A stretch of DNA of 44,477 nt from a phage: the NCBI GenBank assembly GCA_029889005.1, contig GCA_029889005.1_4349.1; one strand, written 5' to 3'. Position 1 is the stretch's first letter; the number at the start of each line of letters is the position of its first letter. The translations under genes were made by a program, and so were the position numbers. The notes below the pieces were generated by a model that was not told where the DNA came from, searched no databases, and worked only from the letters and a program-made list of their open reading frames with translations. This document shows positions 24,014-42,495 of the stretch, in pieces.

Positions 24014-24286
24014 TTAGCTACCGCTATAACCCAGGCATTCGGAAAGACTAAAAGTTGCATTAAATTCCTCAAGGTCTATTTTACGAATACATGGTGAAAG
24101 GCAATCAGCGAAAACCAACTCACCAGAATCAATAACGACGAATCGCCAGCCTTTGAATATGTTCTCGGAAATACCCTCCGCAACTTCGCGTACATTAGGC
24201 ATGTGTTCTGGGAAATCGTGGAAGTTTCTGGACAAAAATTCAAGTGCCTCACACCGGTTTATGTGGTAGTTATCATATTCAATCAT
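24014..24286 (-). CDS. Hypothetical early protein
   Basis: 90 aa ORF in locally AT-rich stretch. Confidence 0.4.
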   Translation of the reverse strand: MIEYDNYHINRCEALEFLSRNFHDFPEHMPNVREVAEGISENIFKGWRFVVIDSGELVFADCLSPCIRKIDLEEFNATFSLSECLGYSGS

Positions 24287-24543
24287 TCCCCGCTCTCCTC
24301 TTTAGCGATGCGTTGCTCTGTTTTAGTGATACCGCGGCGCGTGAATAACACCGGGCTTGTCTTAACGTGCGTCATAAGGCGGTTATTATAAATTACATGG
24401 CGCTCGCATTTCACGTCTTTGCTGTACTTCGCAATCGTCATTTCGTTGAGGCCTGTTTGTCGGCACGTCTCCGCCATCGTGCCAAATTCTTTAATAAGGT
24501 TAGGAATGCTGGTAATCATCCTAAGAAATTCCTCGTCGTCCAC
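24283..24543 (-). CDS. Hypothetical early protein
   Basis: 86 aa ORF coupled to downstream gene. Confidence 0.4.
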   Translation of the reverse strand: MDDEEFLRMITSIPNLIKEFGTMAETCRQTGLNEMTIAKYSKDVKCERHVIYNNRLMTHVKTSPVLFTRRGITKTEQRIAKEESGE

Positions 24544-24710
24544 ATCGCATTCGGATATTTGTTATCGCGGTCCTGCACTACGGCGACCATGTTGCCGCGT
24601 TGCACCAGGCAGAAGTGCCGCTGCTGCTCTCCGTTGTAGCGGCGCCAGATTGCCTCTTCGATTGCTGCGTTGATGTCACTGAACACTGTCTCTACCCCAC
24701 ATAAACCCAA
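24516..24710 (-). CDS. Hypothetical early protein
   Basis: 64 aa ORF in same-strand array. Confidence 0.3.
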   Translation of the reverse strand: MGLCGVETVFSDINAAIEEAIWRRYNGEQQRHFCLVQRGNMVAVVQDRDNKYPNAMWTTRNFLG

Positions 24711-24772
24711 TCAATACGCCGATAAAATAACCTGCTGCTACAAGGCCAATAACCACCTCGAGACTCATACTC

Positions 24773-25006
24773 TTACCCCACTATCTCATCACCGAGCCAC
24801 GCCGTTTCTCGTATATCGTCTACCGCACAAGCGGCGTGCTCCCGGCTAATTGCAAAAATGTAGAAGCTGAACTTCTTCCCGTCGGCGTCGATGTGGTTAA
24901 CCGAGTAAGGTTTCCACAGGACGCCCTCAATAACTACCGGCTTAGGCGACTCCATACGCTTTACCGCATTTGATGCACGTGGCCCGATGTAATCCACCAA
25001 CCACAT
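24773..25006 (-). CDS. Hypothetical early protein
   Basis: 77 aa ORF in same-strand array. Confidence 0.35.
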   Translation of the reverse strand: MWLVDYIGPRASNAVKRMESPKPVVIEGVLWKPYSVNHIDADGKKFSFYIFAISREHAACAVDDIRETAWLGDEIVG

Positions 25007-25190
25007 GTAGGTAGTAATCGTGCTCGCAAGGCTTTTCGTCCGCTTTCAACTTATCAAGCAACATCTTAAACGCCTCCAGTTGAAATTCACCGTTAATCGA
25101 CAATTGCCCTCCTAACGTCTGTTTCTCTGACTCAAGCACCAGAATACGGCGCTCCAGCGATGCGATTGTGATTTTAGGCATTGGTGTCAC
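24942..25190 (-). CDS. Hypothetical protein with C-terminal zinc-ribbon-like CxxC
   Basis: 82 aa; C-terminal CEHDYY ... CIKCGK. Confidence 0.35.
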   Translation of the reverse strand: MTPMPKITIASLERRILVLESEKQTLGGQLSINGEFQLEAFKMLLDKLKADEKPCEHDYYLHVVGGLHRATCIKCGKAYGVA

Positions 25191-25647
25191 CTTTGTTCAG
25201 ATTGAAGCGGTTAATCAGTTCACGGCGGCGCTCCATAAGTTTATCTACCTGCCGTAAGTGGTGCTCTATGTGGGCGTCAATCCACACTATTTCAGATTCA
25301 CCAGTCGCGGATTCTACGCTGAGTTTCTCGTATTCGTTGTTAGTCATTATTTACGCTCTCCCCACATGCGATTGAGATACTTGTTCTTGTCCGGCCCCGG
25401 GAAACTGTTACGTTTCATCAGTTCCTCGCGTGTCGGGAACGGGGTGTGACTGACTTTATGGCCTACTCGTAATGGTTGGCTTACTTGACCTTGTTCGCTC
25501 ATTTCTTCTCTCCTGCATAAGCTGCTTTAAGTGTCTGCATCGCAGCGAACCAGAACGCGTCCGCTGGAATGCTGTTGCTCAGGTTACTAACTGCGATGCG
25601 CGCCATCAGTTGCGCGTCTTTGAATGCTTCGATATCTGTGATTTTCA

Positions 25648-25845
25648 TTAGTTATTCTCCAGTATTTCTAACGCTTTCACGATGTAACGTTTACGTAAAA
25701 CATCAGTCTGCGCGCTATTAGCCCTGCGTATGTAGCCCGCAGCGGCCCTCATCTGTAGTTTTTCCACCGAACCATTCCCTATAACTGATGCGATACATTT
25801 AACTTCGAGTTCTTCGGTTATTTCTATCGTCGATACGTTGCCCAT
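25648..25845 (-). CDS. Small protein with GYIRRANSA-TD-LR module
   Basis: 65 aa; shares AAAGYIRRANSAQTDVLRKRYIVKALE with the 28021..28509 product. Confidence 0.5.
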   Translation of the reverse strand: MGNVSTIEITEELEVKCIASVIGNGSVEKLQMRAAAGYIRRANSAQTDVLRKRYIVKALEILENN

Positions 25846-25879
25846 TTCTCTCTACTCCGTTCTCGTTGTCGATGAAGTA

Positions 25880-25908
25880 AATATAATAGGGTCGAGGATA
25901 ATAGTCAA
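25880..25908 (-). promoter_or_regulatory. Sigma70-like promoter (TTGACT-N17-TATATT)
   Basis: Minus-strand hexamers with 17 bp spacer ~35 nt upstream of 25845 start. Confidence 0.5.
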
Positions 25909-25929
25909 CTAGTCATCACAGAAAATAGA

Positions 25930-25963
25930 TAAAAAAAAATCCCGGCTGGGTCAGGGCCGGGAT
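25930..25963 (-). terminator. Strong intrinsic terminator
   Basis: Minus strand hairpin CCCGGCC-CTGACCCAG-CCGGG followed by nine T. Confidence 0.75.
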
Positions 25964-25996
25964 AAAACTGGAGAGCAGAGGGATGGAGCATGAGGT
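25931..25996 (-). ncRNA. Candidate small RNA (~65 nt)
   Basis: Minus-strand TTGACA-N17-GATACT (~26031..26003) then ~65 nt ending at the 25930..25963 terminator; 5' part C/U-rich (CCUC, CCCUCUGCUCUCC); no RBS-preceded ORF. Confidence 0.3.
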
Positions 25997-26160
25997 GATT
26001 TAAGTATCGTCGGATTAGTCTTATGTGTCAACAGAGATTCTCCGGCACGCGTTACCGCACTTTGGCTCGACCTTGTTACAGGTCCGCGAGGGTGATGATA
26101 CCCGGAATTCCCTCAATGTTGTTTAATCTTCTGTTGCCGTTAGTCTATCAAACTACTGGC

Positions 26161-26193
26161 AAAATAAAACCCGGATTCGCGGCCCGGGTTTAT
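26161..26193. terminator. Intrinsic terminator after endolysin gene
   Basis: AACCCGG-N9-CCGGGTT hairpin with T-rich runs on both strands; just downstream of endolysin stop. Confidence 0.65.
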
Positions 26194-26228
26194 GGAGATG
26201 CAAGCACAAGCGGCGTATGACGATTATA

Positions 26229-26768
26229 TCAGCCTTTCACCGCGCGTCCAATAGCAACCGCCTCTTGCCACGGCTTACCGTCGAACAATGCCAGCCGCCC
26301 GGCGGTACGGCGGCGCAGGCCGAGTAACGGTTTGCCGTTCTGGTTGATGAACAGCGCCAGCTTAGCCCGCAGAGTCGTGACGTCACCAGAACGCAGTGCC
26401 TTACCTGTGCCAGTAGTAGCCGCAATCACACCGGCACCAGCGTTATACACCAGGTCGCACACTGCGTCGAACTGAGCCTGTGTCAGTGAGTGATGCGCTG
26501 CAGCGTCAACGGCGGCTACGGCCTTAGCCATATCGCGATTGAGTAGCAGAAGACCCTGGCCGGGCGTGATGGTCTGCCCCGCCTTAACATGCGGGCCATA
26601 GCTTCCATACCCAATAGTCAGGTACTTCTCATTCGGTGTAGCGCGATACGCGGTTCCGCGGAATCCCTCGAACGCGGCAGTGAATTTGATGCCATTATCT
26701 GAAATATTTCGAGACACGCTTATGCCCTCCGTACGACAGCCCCGCCTGACGAATCTGACGCAGCGCAA
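26229..26768 (-). CDS. Endolysin (phage lysozyme-like)
   Basis: FEGFRGTAYRATPNEKYLTIGYG N-terminal catalytic-region pattern and QFDAVCDLVYNAG core; likely true start is GTG ~26717 preceded by GGAGGG. Confidence 0.8.
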   Translation of the reverse strand: MRCVRFVRRGCRTEGISVSRNISDNGIKFTAAFEGFRGTAYRATPNEKYLTIGYGSYGPHVKAGQTITPGQGLLLLNRDMAKAVAAVDAAAHHSLTQAQFDAVCDLVYNAGAGVIAATTGTGKALRSGDVTTLRAKLALFINQNGKPLLGLRRRTAGRLALFDGKPWQEAVAIGRAVKG

Positions 26769-26973
26769 CTAATGTGATTAATGTCTCAGGCAGCGTCGGT
26801 GACATGCTGCCCTGTAACAGGTGGATACATCCGGCGGCGCAGACAATAGCAGTTAGGATATACAGCACACGACCAAACAGGCCATCATCTACGCTGGGGT
26901 GGTATACGTTAAACAGCGATGTGCTCCCGATTGCGAGCATACCACCAAACCAGAATAACTCATTCATTACCAC
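26695..26973 (-). CDS. Holin-like membrane protein (2 predicted TMDs)
   Basis: Two hydrophobic segments then charged C-terminus; immediately upstream of and overlapping endolysin start. Confidence 0.5.
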   Translation of the reverse strand: MVMNELFWFGGMLAIGSTSLFNVYHPSVDDGLFGRVLYILTAIVCAAGCIHLLQGSMSPTLPETLITLVALRQIRQAGLSYGGHKRVSKYFR

Positions 26974-27268
26974 CTCCGCGACGTGCGATGTATTCTCCGG
27001 CGACGATACCGGAGAGACGGGAATAGATGGGCATCCAGAGAATTGCGATGATGAATCCGAGGCCAGCTATCTCGCGCTCGCCAGTAATACCGAACCATTG
27101 AGCGGCGAGAGGCGCACCGAATACGGCGCACGCAAAGCCAGTGGTGAGAAAACAGAGAGCATCGACAGGGCCGGTAATAGTGGCTTTGTGTTGCCGTAAG
27201 CCTATTACCCCACCAGCTAATGCGGCAGCGAGAAGCCACCCCGTCACTGTTTCAGTAAATTTATCCAA
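26960..27268 (-). CDS. Holin (3 predicted TMDs)
   Basis: 102 aa with three hydrophobic helices and charged C-terminus; first gene of lysis cassette. Confidence 0.6.
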   Translation of the reverse strand: MDKFTETVTGWLLAAALAGGVIGLRQHKATITGPVDALCFLTTGFACAVFGAPLAAQWFGITGEREIAGLGFIIAILWMPIYSRLSGIVAGEYIARRGGGNE

Positions 27269-27343
27269 GATGAATCCTCCAGGTGCGTATTAAGTATGCG
27301 GTAACTGGAGGATAGCACGGTTAGGAATTATCTTAATAACGGT

Positions 27344-27682
27344 TTATTTATGACGCCAGATGTATTGTCGTCTCTGCGGTTTAGTCGGAATATCATCGTA
27401 TCCGAGCGATTTCCAGTAATTAAATAACCGATTAGCGATTGCCGCGCGTTCCTGTGTTTTAAACTCTCCTAGATTCACGGCCTTTCCGTTCTGGAATCCA
27501 CAGGCGCGGACCGCTTTGCGCCGTTCTTGTATCTCTGGGTACAGCACGTTACGGCGACGCTTGTGTATACGTGTCTTCGCTCTCGGTGACAGCGGCGCAA
27601 GGCCGCTTCGTTTCAGGATGTCAGTTGCAAGAGACATCACTCCGCCCCCTCCACATGTGTAACTGACCCACAGTTCGCGCAC
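27344..27682 (-). CDS. AP2-like DNA-binding domain protein, putative
   Basis: ACGFQNGKAVNLGEFKTQERAAIANRLF resembles AP2/ERF core (G-K ... LG-F-T-E-AA-A); likely start at internal ATG. Confidence 0.45.
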   Translation of the reverse strand: MRELWVSYTCGGGGVMSLATDILKRSGLAPLSPRAKTRIHKRRRNVLYPEIQERRKAVRACGFQNGKAVNLGEFKTQERAAIANRLFNYWKSLGYDDIPTKPQRRQYIWRHK

Positions 27683-41074: not shown

Positions 41075-42495
41075 GTAAGTTTCAAAGGCGCGAATACCAG
41101 AAGCTCATGACTTCGTTCATGCTGCAACACCCTCGCTGTAATATCTGGTGTGGCATGGGAGGGGGTAAAACCTCCTCTACTATGTGGGTGTTAAACCGCT
41201 TGTTCCGCAACGGGCAGCTTACAGAAGAGGACCGCGTGTTAATCCTCGCCCCGTTGCGTGTTGCGTCGGGTACGTGGCCTGCAGAACAAGAGAAATGGAA
41301 CTTCCCTTGTCTGCGTGTCGTCGATGCGACCGGTTCGGAGAAGCGCCGCATCGCGGCGCTGGAGTCAGACGCTAACGTGGTGTGCACTAACTACGAAGTT
41401 ATCGAGTGGCTAATTGACTACTACGGCAAAGACGACTGGCCTTTTACGGTTATCGTTGCCGATGAAAGCACGAAGCTTAAATCGTTCCGCAGCCGTTCGG
41501 GTGGTAGCAAGCGGGCAAAGGCGCTCAGCAAGGTTGCGTTCGGAAAGGTTAAGCGTTTCATCAACCTGACAGGCACACCGTCACCAAACGGCCTCAAAGA
41601 CTTGTGGGGTCAGAACTGGTTTATCGACGCTGGCGAGCGCCTCGGCTCTTCGTACACAGCATTCACCGACCGCTGGTTTAACTCGGTACAGAAAGGTAAA
41701 TCGGCCATGGCCCGCGAGTATCATGCACGACCGGGTGCGGATAATGAGATTCATCAGAAGATGAAAGACATCAGCCTGACCATAGACCCTGCCGAGTGGT
41801 TTGGTTGTGAAGCGCCTGTTATCGTACCGGTGGAAATAGACCTGCCGAAGAAAGCGCGTCAGGCGTACATAGATATGGAGGAGAAGTTATTCGCAGAACT
41901 GGAGAGCGGGGAAGTTGAAGCGGCTAACGCTGCGGCGAAGACCTCAAAGTGCTTGCAGATTGCATCTGGTGCTGTATATGTAACCGGGCCAGACGGCGAA
42001 GCAACCAAAGAATGGGAGAAAGTGCACGACACGAAACTGGATGCGCTCGAGTCGATTGTTGAGGAGTTGCAGGGTGCGCCGTTGCTGGTAGCCTATCAGT
42101 TTAAACACGAACTGGAGCGTATCCTTAAGCGATTCCCACAGGCACAGGCGTTCGCCAAAGGCGCTAGGGGGAACAAGCAGATGGAAGCGTGGAACCGTGG
42201 GGAAATCGAGATTTTATGCGTGCATCCTGCGTCAGCCGGGCATGGTTTGAATTTACAGGACGGGGGTCATCATCTGGCGTTCGTCTCGCAAGGCTGGAAC
42301 CTTGAGCACTATTTGCAGGTTGTTGAGCGCATAGGTCCAACACGCCAGAAACAGGCGGGTCACGAGCGCCCGGTGTTCCTTTATCACATCGTTGCTAAAG
42401 ACACTCTGGACGAGGTTGTCGCCGCGCGTACCGACGAGAAGAAATCGGTACAGGAAGAGTTGCTTAATTACATGAAGAGACGAGGTAAGAAATGA
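41071..42495 (+). CDS. SNF2-family helicase
   Basis: Walker A GMGGGKT, DExx box VIVADEST, LTGTPSPNGLKDLW motif, C-terminal helicase domain. Confidence 0.8.
   Translation: MSKFQRREYQKLMTSFMLQHPRCNIWCGMGGGKTSSTMWVLNRLFRNGQLTEEDRVLILAPLRVASGTWPAEQEKWNFPCLRVVDATGSEKRRIAALESDANVVCTNYEVIEWLIDYYGKDDWPFTVIVADESTKLKSFRSRSGGSKRAKALSKVAFGKVKRFINLTGTPSPNGLKDLWGQNWFIDAGERLGSSYTAFTDRWFNSVQKGKSAMAREYHARPGADNEIHQKMKDISLTIDPAEWFGCEAPVIVPVEIDLPKKARQAYIDMEEKLFAELESGEVEAANAAAKTSKCLQIASGAVYVTGPDGEATKEWEKVHDTKLDALESIVEELQGAPLLVAYQFKHELERILKRFPQAQAFAKGARGNKQMEAWNRGEIEILCVHPASAGHGLNLQDGGHHLAFVSQGWNLEHYLQVVERIGPTRQKQAGHERPVFLYHIVAKDTLDEVVAARTDEKKSVQEELLNYMKRRGKK

Follow-up and report, generated by a model that had tools for sequence, protein, structure and literature searches.

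What is encoded in the non-coding DNA that follows the endolysin gene in phages of the subfamily Guernseyvirinae? The window, that is, the whole stretch of DNA analysed here (44,477 nucleotides), is the ~44.5 kb genome of a virulent siphophage of this subfamily, and its nearest relatives are Kagunavirus phages of E. coli. The minus-strand gene order is two holins, endolysin, the non-coding stretch, a row of small open reading frames (ORFs), and the terminase and structural genes; every gene neighbouring the locus lies on the minus strand. The stretch between the endolysin stop codon (26231..26229, minus strand) and the first small ORF (25648..25845) had been given as ~270 bp in an initial annotation and is actually 383 bp (25846..26228). 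On its minus strand the same annotation had placed TTGACA-N17-GATACT, then a C/U-rich stretch and then a strong terminator, all of which were found where it had put them, and had proposed a free-standing RNA of ~65 nt. From the comparison of relatives described below, we estimate at about 0.65 the probability that the locus carries a real, unannotated gene for a small RNA (sRNA), in our best reading an independently transcribed and trans-acting one. The promoter, the transcribed part, a compensated stem, the lack of a conserved ORF and the fixed position all support the proposed free-standing RNA.

For the comparison, 50 distinct copies of the locus were collected with anchors that exclude the promoter in question, P1, namely the leader further downstream and the RNA core with its terminator. 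P1 matches the sigma-70 hexamers at 10 of 12 positions with a 17-nt spacer, and its hexamers and spacing are, as we take it, those of lambda PL, a strong promoter. The 17-nt spacing was kept in 50 of 50 copies among 22 different spacer sequences, including one locus (L032) in which a spacer of unrelated sequence still separates both hexamers by 17 nt. Variable columns amounted to 2 of 12 within the hexamers and 22 of 23 within the spacer and discriminator (Fisher p=3.7e-6), a count that overstates the independent events because the copies are related by descent. The pattern indicates that both P1 hexamers and their spacing are under selection while the spacer drifts. The predicted start (+1) is the A at 25996 on the minus strand, the 7th nucleotide past the -10 hexamer. 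Conservation within the unit is lowest in the six nucleotides following the -10 (TAAATC, AAACCT, GGTGTC, GGTTTC); between the Jerseyvirus types B and B', all six nucleotides upstream of +1 differ (AAACCT versus GGTGTC) and the sequence is identical from +1 on, in agreement with the predicted start.

The 5' 31-35 nt of the RNA are predicted to be unpaired both in the single-sequence fold and in the consensus fold, the latter being a lone terminator hairpin behind an open 5' region. This open seed, ACCUCAUGCUCCAUCCCUCUGCUCUCCAGUUUU, consists of 33 nt (14 C, 12 U, 4 A and 3 G; 79% pyrimidine). The C/U-rich 5' end with CUCC runs resembling anti-Shine-Dalgarno (anti-SD) sequences, as described in the initial annotation, was thereby confirmed, and CUCC-type motifs are kept among the relatives. 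Three sequence types of the RNA (A, B and C) were recognized, which have the motifs CUCCUG, CAUCCCUCU and GCUC(U)C in common. Position 25991 (RNA position +6) is peculiar to this window, in which the first motif reads CUCAUG; ATG is absent from the other 49 distinct copies, most of which carry CUCCUG and two of which, variants of the RP180 type, carry CUCCUU. Through this C-to-A change an AUG arises, and one of the three conserved seed motifs becomes weaker. The earlier statement that the transcript has no ORF preceded by a ribosome-binding site (RBS) holds insofar as no SD sequence is present; an AUG at +6 does exist, however, with a frame open through the terminator, in 1 of 50 copies. No conserved ORF was found on either strand of the block copies.

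The RNA is predicted to end at an intrinsic terminator, T1, whose GC-rich hairpin (25963..25939; ~-13.8 kcal/mol) uses the first U of the U9 run (25939..25931) in its last pair. A simple terminator scan missed T1 solely for its 9-nt loop. The fold z-score of the RNA was -2.1, a fold mildly better than those of shuffled sequences. Among 26 variants, 99.5% of the stem cells were paired, and one pair changed from C-G to U-A on both sides in 9 variants, probably as a single event. The U run measures 7-14 nt in the relatives, and UUUUAU, UUUAU or UUUCU stands directly 5' of the stem. The known Hfq-binding module of enterobacterial sRNAs combines a U-rich stretch with a terminator hairpin that ends in a long U tail. 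The terminator, the long U tail and the preceding U-rich single-stranded stretch expected of an Hfq-type sRNA are thus all present, as is a second sequence feature of this class, the conserved single-stranded seed.

Table 1. Features of the locus (minus strand throughout) and mean pairwise identity of its parts among the 50 copies
Feature	Position	Strand	Description	Mean pairwise identity
20 nt upstream of P1				0.46
P1 -35 hexamer	26026..26031	-	TTGACA in 49/50 distinct copies, TTGACG in one	0.993
P1 spacer				0.717
P1 -10 hexamer	26003..26008	-	17 nt 3' of the -35; GATACT in 49/50, CATACT in one	0.993
6 nt before predicted start				0.642
Predicted small RNA	25931..25996	-	~58-66 nt, depending on the end point in the U run; start predicted	
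Unpaired pyrimidine-rich seed	25964..25996	-	CUCAUG (CUCCUG in relatives), CAUCCCUCU, GCUCUCC, then UUUU	0.84
Intrinsic terminator T1	25931..25963	-	8-bp stem AUCCCGGC/GCCGGGAU, 9-nt loop, U9 run	0.886 (hairpin)
P2 promoter	25880..25908	-	TTGACT-N17-TATATT; promoter of the small-ORF operon, within the same conserved block	
P2 -35 hexamer				0.98
P2 spacer				0.74
P2 -10 hexamer				1.0
P2 leader	25846..25873	-	carries SD, ...ACGGAGUAGAGAGAA; directly 5' of AUG at 25845..25843	0.91
First 24 nt of downstream ORF				0.41
Upstream unit	26160..26250	-	promoter-like P0 TGGACG-N16-TGaTATAAT, ~50 nt, terminator T_up (26191..26167)	
134-nt spacer, T_up to P1	26033..26166	-	partly similar to longer non-coding DNA that distant relatives carry at this locus	

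The conserved block of 183 bp (25850..26032) matched 445 phage records, all from Guernseyvirinae, 422 of which hold at least 80% of it; the hosts of these phages include E. coli, Salmonella, Shigella, Raoultella and others. The block identity was 90-99% for Kagunavirus and some Jerseyvirus phages and 75-80% for most Jerseyvirus phages. Between one Kagunavirus and one Jerseyvirus, the block was 78.8% identical, compared with 72-74% for the genes of the endolysin, terminase, portal and tape measure. The block, in which P1, the RNA, T1, a second promoter P2 and its leader are inherited together, has at least 6 different contexts on its upstream side and at least 8 on its downstream side. A covariance model built from 26 variants scored 90.7 bits at 25933..25996 and found exactly one RNA per genome, with no second copy. 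Some deposited genomes start or end in or beside the block, including LP31 (NC_073205.1), SLMP1, EnJE1, vB_STM-ZS, vB_SenS_SE1 and PSP2-22; the LP31 record breaks at the boundary between hairpin and U run and that of vB_STM-ZS within the P2 region. These positions may be assembly break points or starts chosen by the authors.

An origin from host or prophage DNA was rejected. A search of 5,426 complete E. coli genomes found nothing that matched the block, and the pattern scan of 185,579 species genomes detected only three contigs of one assembly, Taishania pollutisoli CZZ-1 (NZ_JACVEL010000022, NZ_JACVEL010000045 and NZ_JACVEL010000047; loci L067-L069). In L067 and L068 the whole block was recovered; it is of the Jerseyvirus type, with an RNA identical to variants in the Salmonella phages SHWT1 and SM86, and the contigs are therefore most likely phage DNA contaminating the assembly.

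Wider synteny was examined through loci retrieved by their endolysin. Cornellvirus and outlying relatives, including FSL SP-031 and Shemara, showed the same layout with a different C-rich RNA. A -35-like TTGGACG falls within the final codons of the endolysin gene and a -10-like hexamer 3-11 nt past its stop codon; an RNA of 49-336 nt comes next and ends in a hairpin with U8-10, behind which lie ATCT, another promoter, a leader that is conserved and an ORF that varies. The Cornellvirus RNA consists of AUUCCACCCAGCCAGCCUUUG and a hairpin, and ~50 nt next to the terminator are conserved while the 5' extensions vary. The unit thus keeps its position in all three genera, which makes a short C-rich RNA unit at this locus a feature of the whole subfamily.

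Neither the whole window, searched at the gathering threshold, nor eight loci of Cornellvirus-type phages and relatives contained any Rfam family. In the region-level search (701-base stretch, E<=10), the best hit was RF02278 (Betaproteobacteria toxic small RNA) at 25932..25977, with 25.0 bits against a gathering threshold of 50 (E=0.0096). Membership in RF02278 was rejected, because the score is below the threshold and the aligned part comprises only UCUCC and the terminator. Membership in anti-hemB, RyhB, AgvB, Hrs1, ncS54 and NsiR1 was likewise rejected (14-20 bits against thresholds of 39-56), the matches lying over the terminator end. The RNA was not annotated in any of the phage records examined, and no report of an sRNA or of mapped transcription start sites in Guernseyvirinae was found in the literature searched. 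The RNA, of roughly 64 nt, is probably a new, unannotated phage-encoded small base-pairing RNA that is widespread in Guernseyvirinae, a group in clinical use.

The sequence and its comparison establish the anatomy of the unit and the selection on the hexamers and their spacing and on the transcribed sequence and its hairpin; they also show that the unit has no coding capacity and occupies a fixed position throughout the subfamily. We infer that the RNA accumulates, binds Hfq and pairs at the RBSs of putative target mRNAs. Host sigma-70 RNA polymerase would transcribe the RNA from its own strong promoter P1, and transcription would end at T1. The product would be of the Hfq-dependent type: an open C/U-rich 5' seed of ~33 nt leads into a brief U-rich run, which is followed by a GC-rich hairpin with an extended U tail. 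Its anti-SD-like motifs (CUCCUG, CAUCCCUCU and GCUCUCC) would pair with mRNAs of the host or the phage at purine-rich ribosome-binding regions, and the pairing would block translation or trigger mRNA decay; this mechanism seems to us somewhat less probable than the existence of the sRNA gene. In most relatives, the 3' end of the lysis mRNA could be a second source of this RNA.

Several observations weigh against an sRNA gene, in addition to the common descent of the copies and the single origin of the compensated pair. In the single sequence, promoter-like sites occurred at chance level (4 found versus 3.6 expected in a 3 kb scan), and the evidence for an RNA gene consequently comes from the comparison among relatives. 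Since most relatives need T1 for termination of the lysis operon in any case, conservation of the hairpin alone is uninformative on an sRNA. The only Guernseyvirinae transcriptome paper describes genes only, without mention of small RNAs or intergenic regions. Target prediction against the phage RBS regions, which the initial annotation had suggested, gave no convincing target, and no target stood out in the phage-internal scans. Real seeds paired with phage RBS regions only slightly better than shuffled ones (mean -15.0 versus -14.2 and -13.9 versus -12.6 kcal/mol), and in one of two phages the best RBS hit was within the shuffled range (-27.3 versus -27.6); for SE2 the best hit was ~2 standard deviations beyond it (-27.8 versus -23.1, standard deviation 2.2). 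The complement of the 9-mer core, AGAGGGAUG, occurs nowhere else in the window.

The neighbouring P2 leader ranked 382nd of 29,626 windows in a sliding duplex scan of both strands, and 4th of 85 and 9th of 61 in an RBS-restricted scan of two annotated genomes, in which shuffled seeds performed nearly as well. It is a weak candidate for a target; its pairing with the RNA is mostly an effect of composition and is absent in Cornellvirus. The small ORF at 24014..24286 (MIEYDN...) has orthologues that recur among the good pairing hits, including those of 22664BS2 and SE2, and is not convincing as a target. A 13-mer, GGAGAGCGGGGAA, occurs twice in the window, within 24266..24305 on the minus strand at the RBS of this ORF and within 41884..41923 on the plus strand near 41900; both sites are among the better predicted seed-pairing sites, at a level that is not significant.

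The relation of the unit to the endolysin gene differs between the window and most relatives. In the latter, the stop codon of the endolysin falls within the -35 hexamer or right beside it (TGA inside TTGACA, or TAG 2 nt before it), and the RNA therefore doubles as the 3' end of the lysis mRNA. The layout of an sRNA from a 3' untranslated region (3' UTR), with a promoter at the end of the coding sequence and a terminator common with the mRNA, is thus present in most relatives; in the window, the terminator T_up and 134 nt intervene. They belong to an insert of 196 bp (26033..26228) that separates P1 from the endolysin stop, and this insert with its own terminator makes the RNA unit free-standing here. 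The location between two terminators, as originally described, applies to this window (T_up and T1) and to a few relatives, and not to the general setting.

The insert itself contains a promoter-like element, P0, whose extended -10 TG is supplied by the endolysin stop codon; the ~50 nt that follow are ACGCCGCUUGUGCUUGCAUCUCCAUAA, and then comes T_up. The core ACGCYGYTTGTGCYTGCAY with its terminator was present in 11 loci behind different -10-like hexamers, some copies carrying an extra insert of ~65 nt. Judged by this arrangement, the region from P0 to T_up may be a second small transcription unit. The 134-nt spacer between T_up and P1 is common to Ivi, L026, L035 and L050. Its segment ACCTGTAACAAGGTC..AGCC.AAGTGCGGTAA.GCGTGCCGGAG is also found in L123, within a non-coding stretch of 179 nt at the same locus, where the counterpart reads ...ACCTGTAACAAGGTCTAGCCCAAGTGCGGTAATGCGTGCCGGAG; L119 and L125 have longer stretches (278 and 336 nt), which share other segments with L123. 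The spacer gave no Rfam match and a fold z-score of only -1.45.

Downstream of T1, P2 starts after ~30 nt. Its variable columns numbered 1 of 12 in the hexamers versus 13 of 17 in the spacer (p=5e-4). The leader (AUCGACAACGAGAACGGAGUAGAGA...) precedes at least 8 unrelated first ORFs in the window and loci L001-L069 and is still conserved (0.91). The leader itself seems to be functional, for example as a translation signal or a regulator site.

Of the other explanations considered, the one that survives best is that the locus is a transcriptional control cassette and the RNA a by-product, P1 and T1 acting like lambda pR'-tR', with a phage factor allowing read-through into the small-ORF, terminase and structural genes, or insulating or feeding P2. 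P1, T1, P2 and all downstream genes, including the packaging and structural genes, share one direction, and the cassette from P1 to the leader is passed on as one block, as this explanation would have it. That Cornellvirus keeps the same layout with an RNA different in sequence and length (49-336 nt) also fits a role independent of the RNA sequence. The near-consensus P2 (-35 identity 0.98, -10 invariant), located ~30 nt past T1, however, frees the downstream genes from any need of read-through: in the pR'-tR' arrangement the terminated promoter is the sole route downstream, whereas here P2 lies between T1 and the first ORF. Furthermore, the seed (0.84) is better conserved than the promoter spacer (0.72) and the discriminator (0.64), and the Cornellvirus RNA is conserved in the ~50 nt by the terminator and variable in its 5' extensions. 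The stretch just past the -10 is not conserved, which makes a fixed pause or loading element unlikely. In total, we consider the control cassette unlikely as the main role of the locus.

It is still less likely that the C/U stretch serves in cis. In RNAs begun at P1 or in the lysis operon and extended past T1, it would hide the SD-AUG belonging to the first P2 gene, while the mRNA started at P2 lacks it and is translated. Phage T4 masks the RBS of its lysozyme gene e in long transcripts in this manner. In the minimum free energy structure of the RNA from P1 to the ORF, CAUC/CCUCU/CUCC paired with GGAG/UAGAG/(G)AUG in 6 of 6 variants folded; the paired probability of the SD-AUG was 0.77-0.86 in 6 of 8 read-through RNAs versus 0.25-0.48 in the P2-started mRNA, and 0.60 in the read-through RNA of the leader variant L065. 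Conservation of the leader (0.91) before a varying ORF is also in line with masking. Shuffled C/U regions, however, masked the SD nearly as well (0.73-0.84), leaving a specific excess of only p ~0.03-0.3, and the leader variants L033, L065, L020 and L029 break the pairing without a compensating change in the RNA. In Cornellvirus, the RNA-leader pairing was 0.00-0.24, no better than for shuffled sequences. T1 looks efficient, and read-through RNA should therefore be rare; in this window, T_up already halts the lysis transcripts. Masking of the first P2 gene was thus predicted, but is neither specific nor conserved, and we consider it improbable.

A similarly low probability is given to the view that no separate RNA gene exists, the stretch being the 3' UTR and terminator of the lysis operon, with the hexamers kept for another reason, for example as a protein site or a recombination junction. 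In most relatives the endolysin stop indeed lies inside TTGACA or 2 nt before it, and the block borders modules swapped between phages. But TTGACA is kept free of any stop-codon constraint in this window, in the Golestan type and in SE2, and a junction or protein site leaves unexplained the fixed 17-nt spacing of the hexamers around a free spacer, which is wholly replaced in L032. The lysis operon of this window has its own upstream terminator, and the unit is still intact.

A plus-strand micro-peptide (GGAG-N9-ATG at 25983; MEHEVI* here, MEQEVI* or MNKQEQV* in relatives), for which most copies do carry a GGAG-preceded ATG and a frame of 6-7 codons, was rejected as having a negligible probability, since no plus-strand promoter-like site is present within 24500..27500, the neighbouring genes are all on the minus strand, the length is not kept (frame open-ended in 4 copies, GTG in 1, motif absent in 1, stop in the least conserved 6 nt), and the conserved motifs CAUC and CUCC, read on the opposite strand, already account for ATG and GGAG.

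If the preferred reading, an sRNA gene, is correct, the RNA would occur in the sequenced genomes of ~445 Kagunavirus and Jerseyvirus phages, of which many were isolated as candidates for therapy or biocontrol, and deletion or replacement of the 'non-coding' DNA past the lysis cassette in phage engineering would remove it. With one promoter, one terminator, a short length and natural seed variants, it would offer a simple handle on phage action on host or phage translation, and the endolysin-proximal intergenic region would be a place to seek non-coding genes in siphophages. A wider proposal, which we hold to be doubtful, is that the site serves the whole subfamily as a slot for C-rich riboregulators that evolve fast and can replace one another; it would hold at least four RNA types and longer forms, and two units in tandem in this window. 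The riboregulators would be expressed from host-type promoters at the very start of infection and silence host mRNAs by anti-SD pairing. If so, the silenced mRNAs might be, for example, those for defence, receptors or translation, and the RNAs would be the counterpart of protein host-takeover genes.

To our knowledge, small regulatory RNAs are well documented in prophages and rare in strictly virulent phages. Few Hfq-dependent sRNAs encoded by phages or prophages are known, examples being DicF, AgvB/AsxR and lambda PreS. Unlike the prophage sRNAs, the present RNA is carried by strictly virulent siphophages and is absent from the E. coli genomes searched. The lambda pR'-tR' unit yields the 6S RNA; the present unit resembles it in a strong, constitutive-looking promoter, a short terminated transcript and co-directional late genes downstream, but differs in having a second strong promoter past the terminator, no conserved initially transcribed element, and the lysis genes upstream, not downstream. 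With RF02278 the RNA has in common its shortness, single-stranded CUCC-type motifs complementary to the SD sequence and a terminator directly after them, although host range and genomic setting differ and it is not a member. RsaE/RoxS are C-rich anti-SD regulators with a similar build of CUCC-type motifs.

The closest likeness in overall build is to enterobacterial Hfq sRNAs, which the RNA resembles in its ~60 nt, an own (here predicted) sigma-70 promoter, an open 5' seed, the lack of an ORF, a U-rich stretch, a GC-rich terminator hairpin and a long U tail; unlike known members of that class, it has no Rfam match (the scores for RyhB and AgvB are 16 and 15 bits, with thresholds of 55-56). In genomic layout, the comparison is with sRNAs of the DapZ/MicL type, which originate in 3' UTRs, start from a promoter of their own where the upstream gene ends and share their terminator with the mRNA. 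The 196-bp insert with its terminator separates the unit from the endolysin in this window, in contrast to that type, whereas most relatives have a -35 that overlaps the endolysin stop and a T1 shared with the lysis mRNA, and in Cornellvirus the -35-like sequence lies within the last endolysin codons, as in the DapZ/MicL type.

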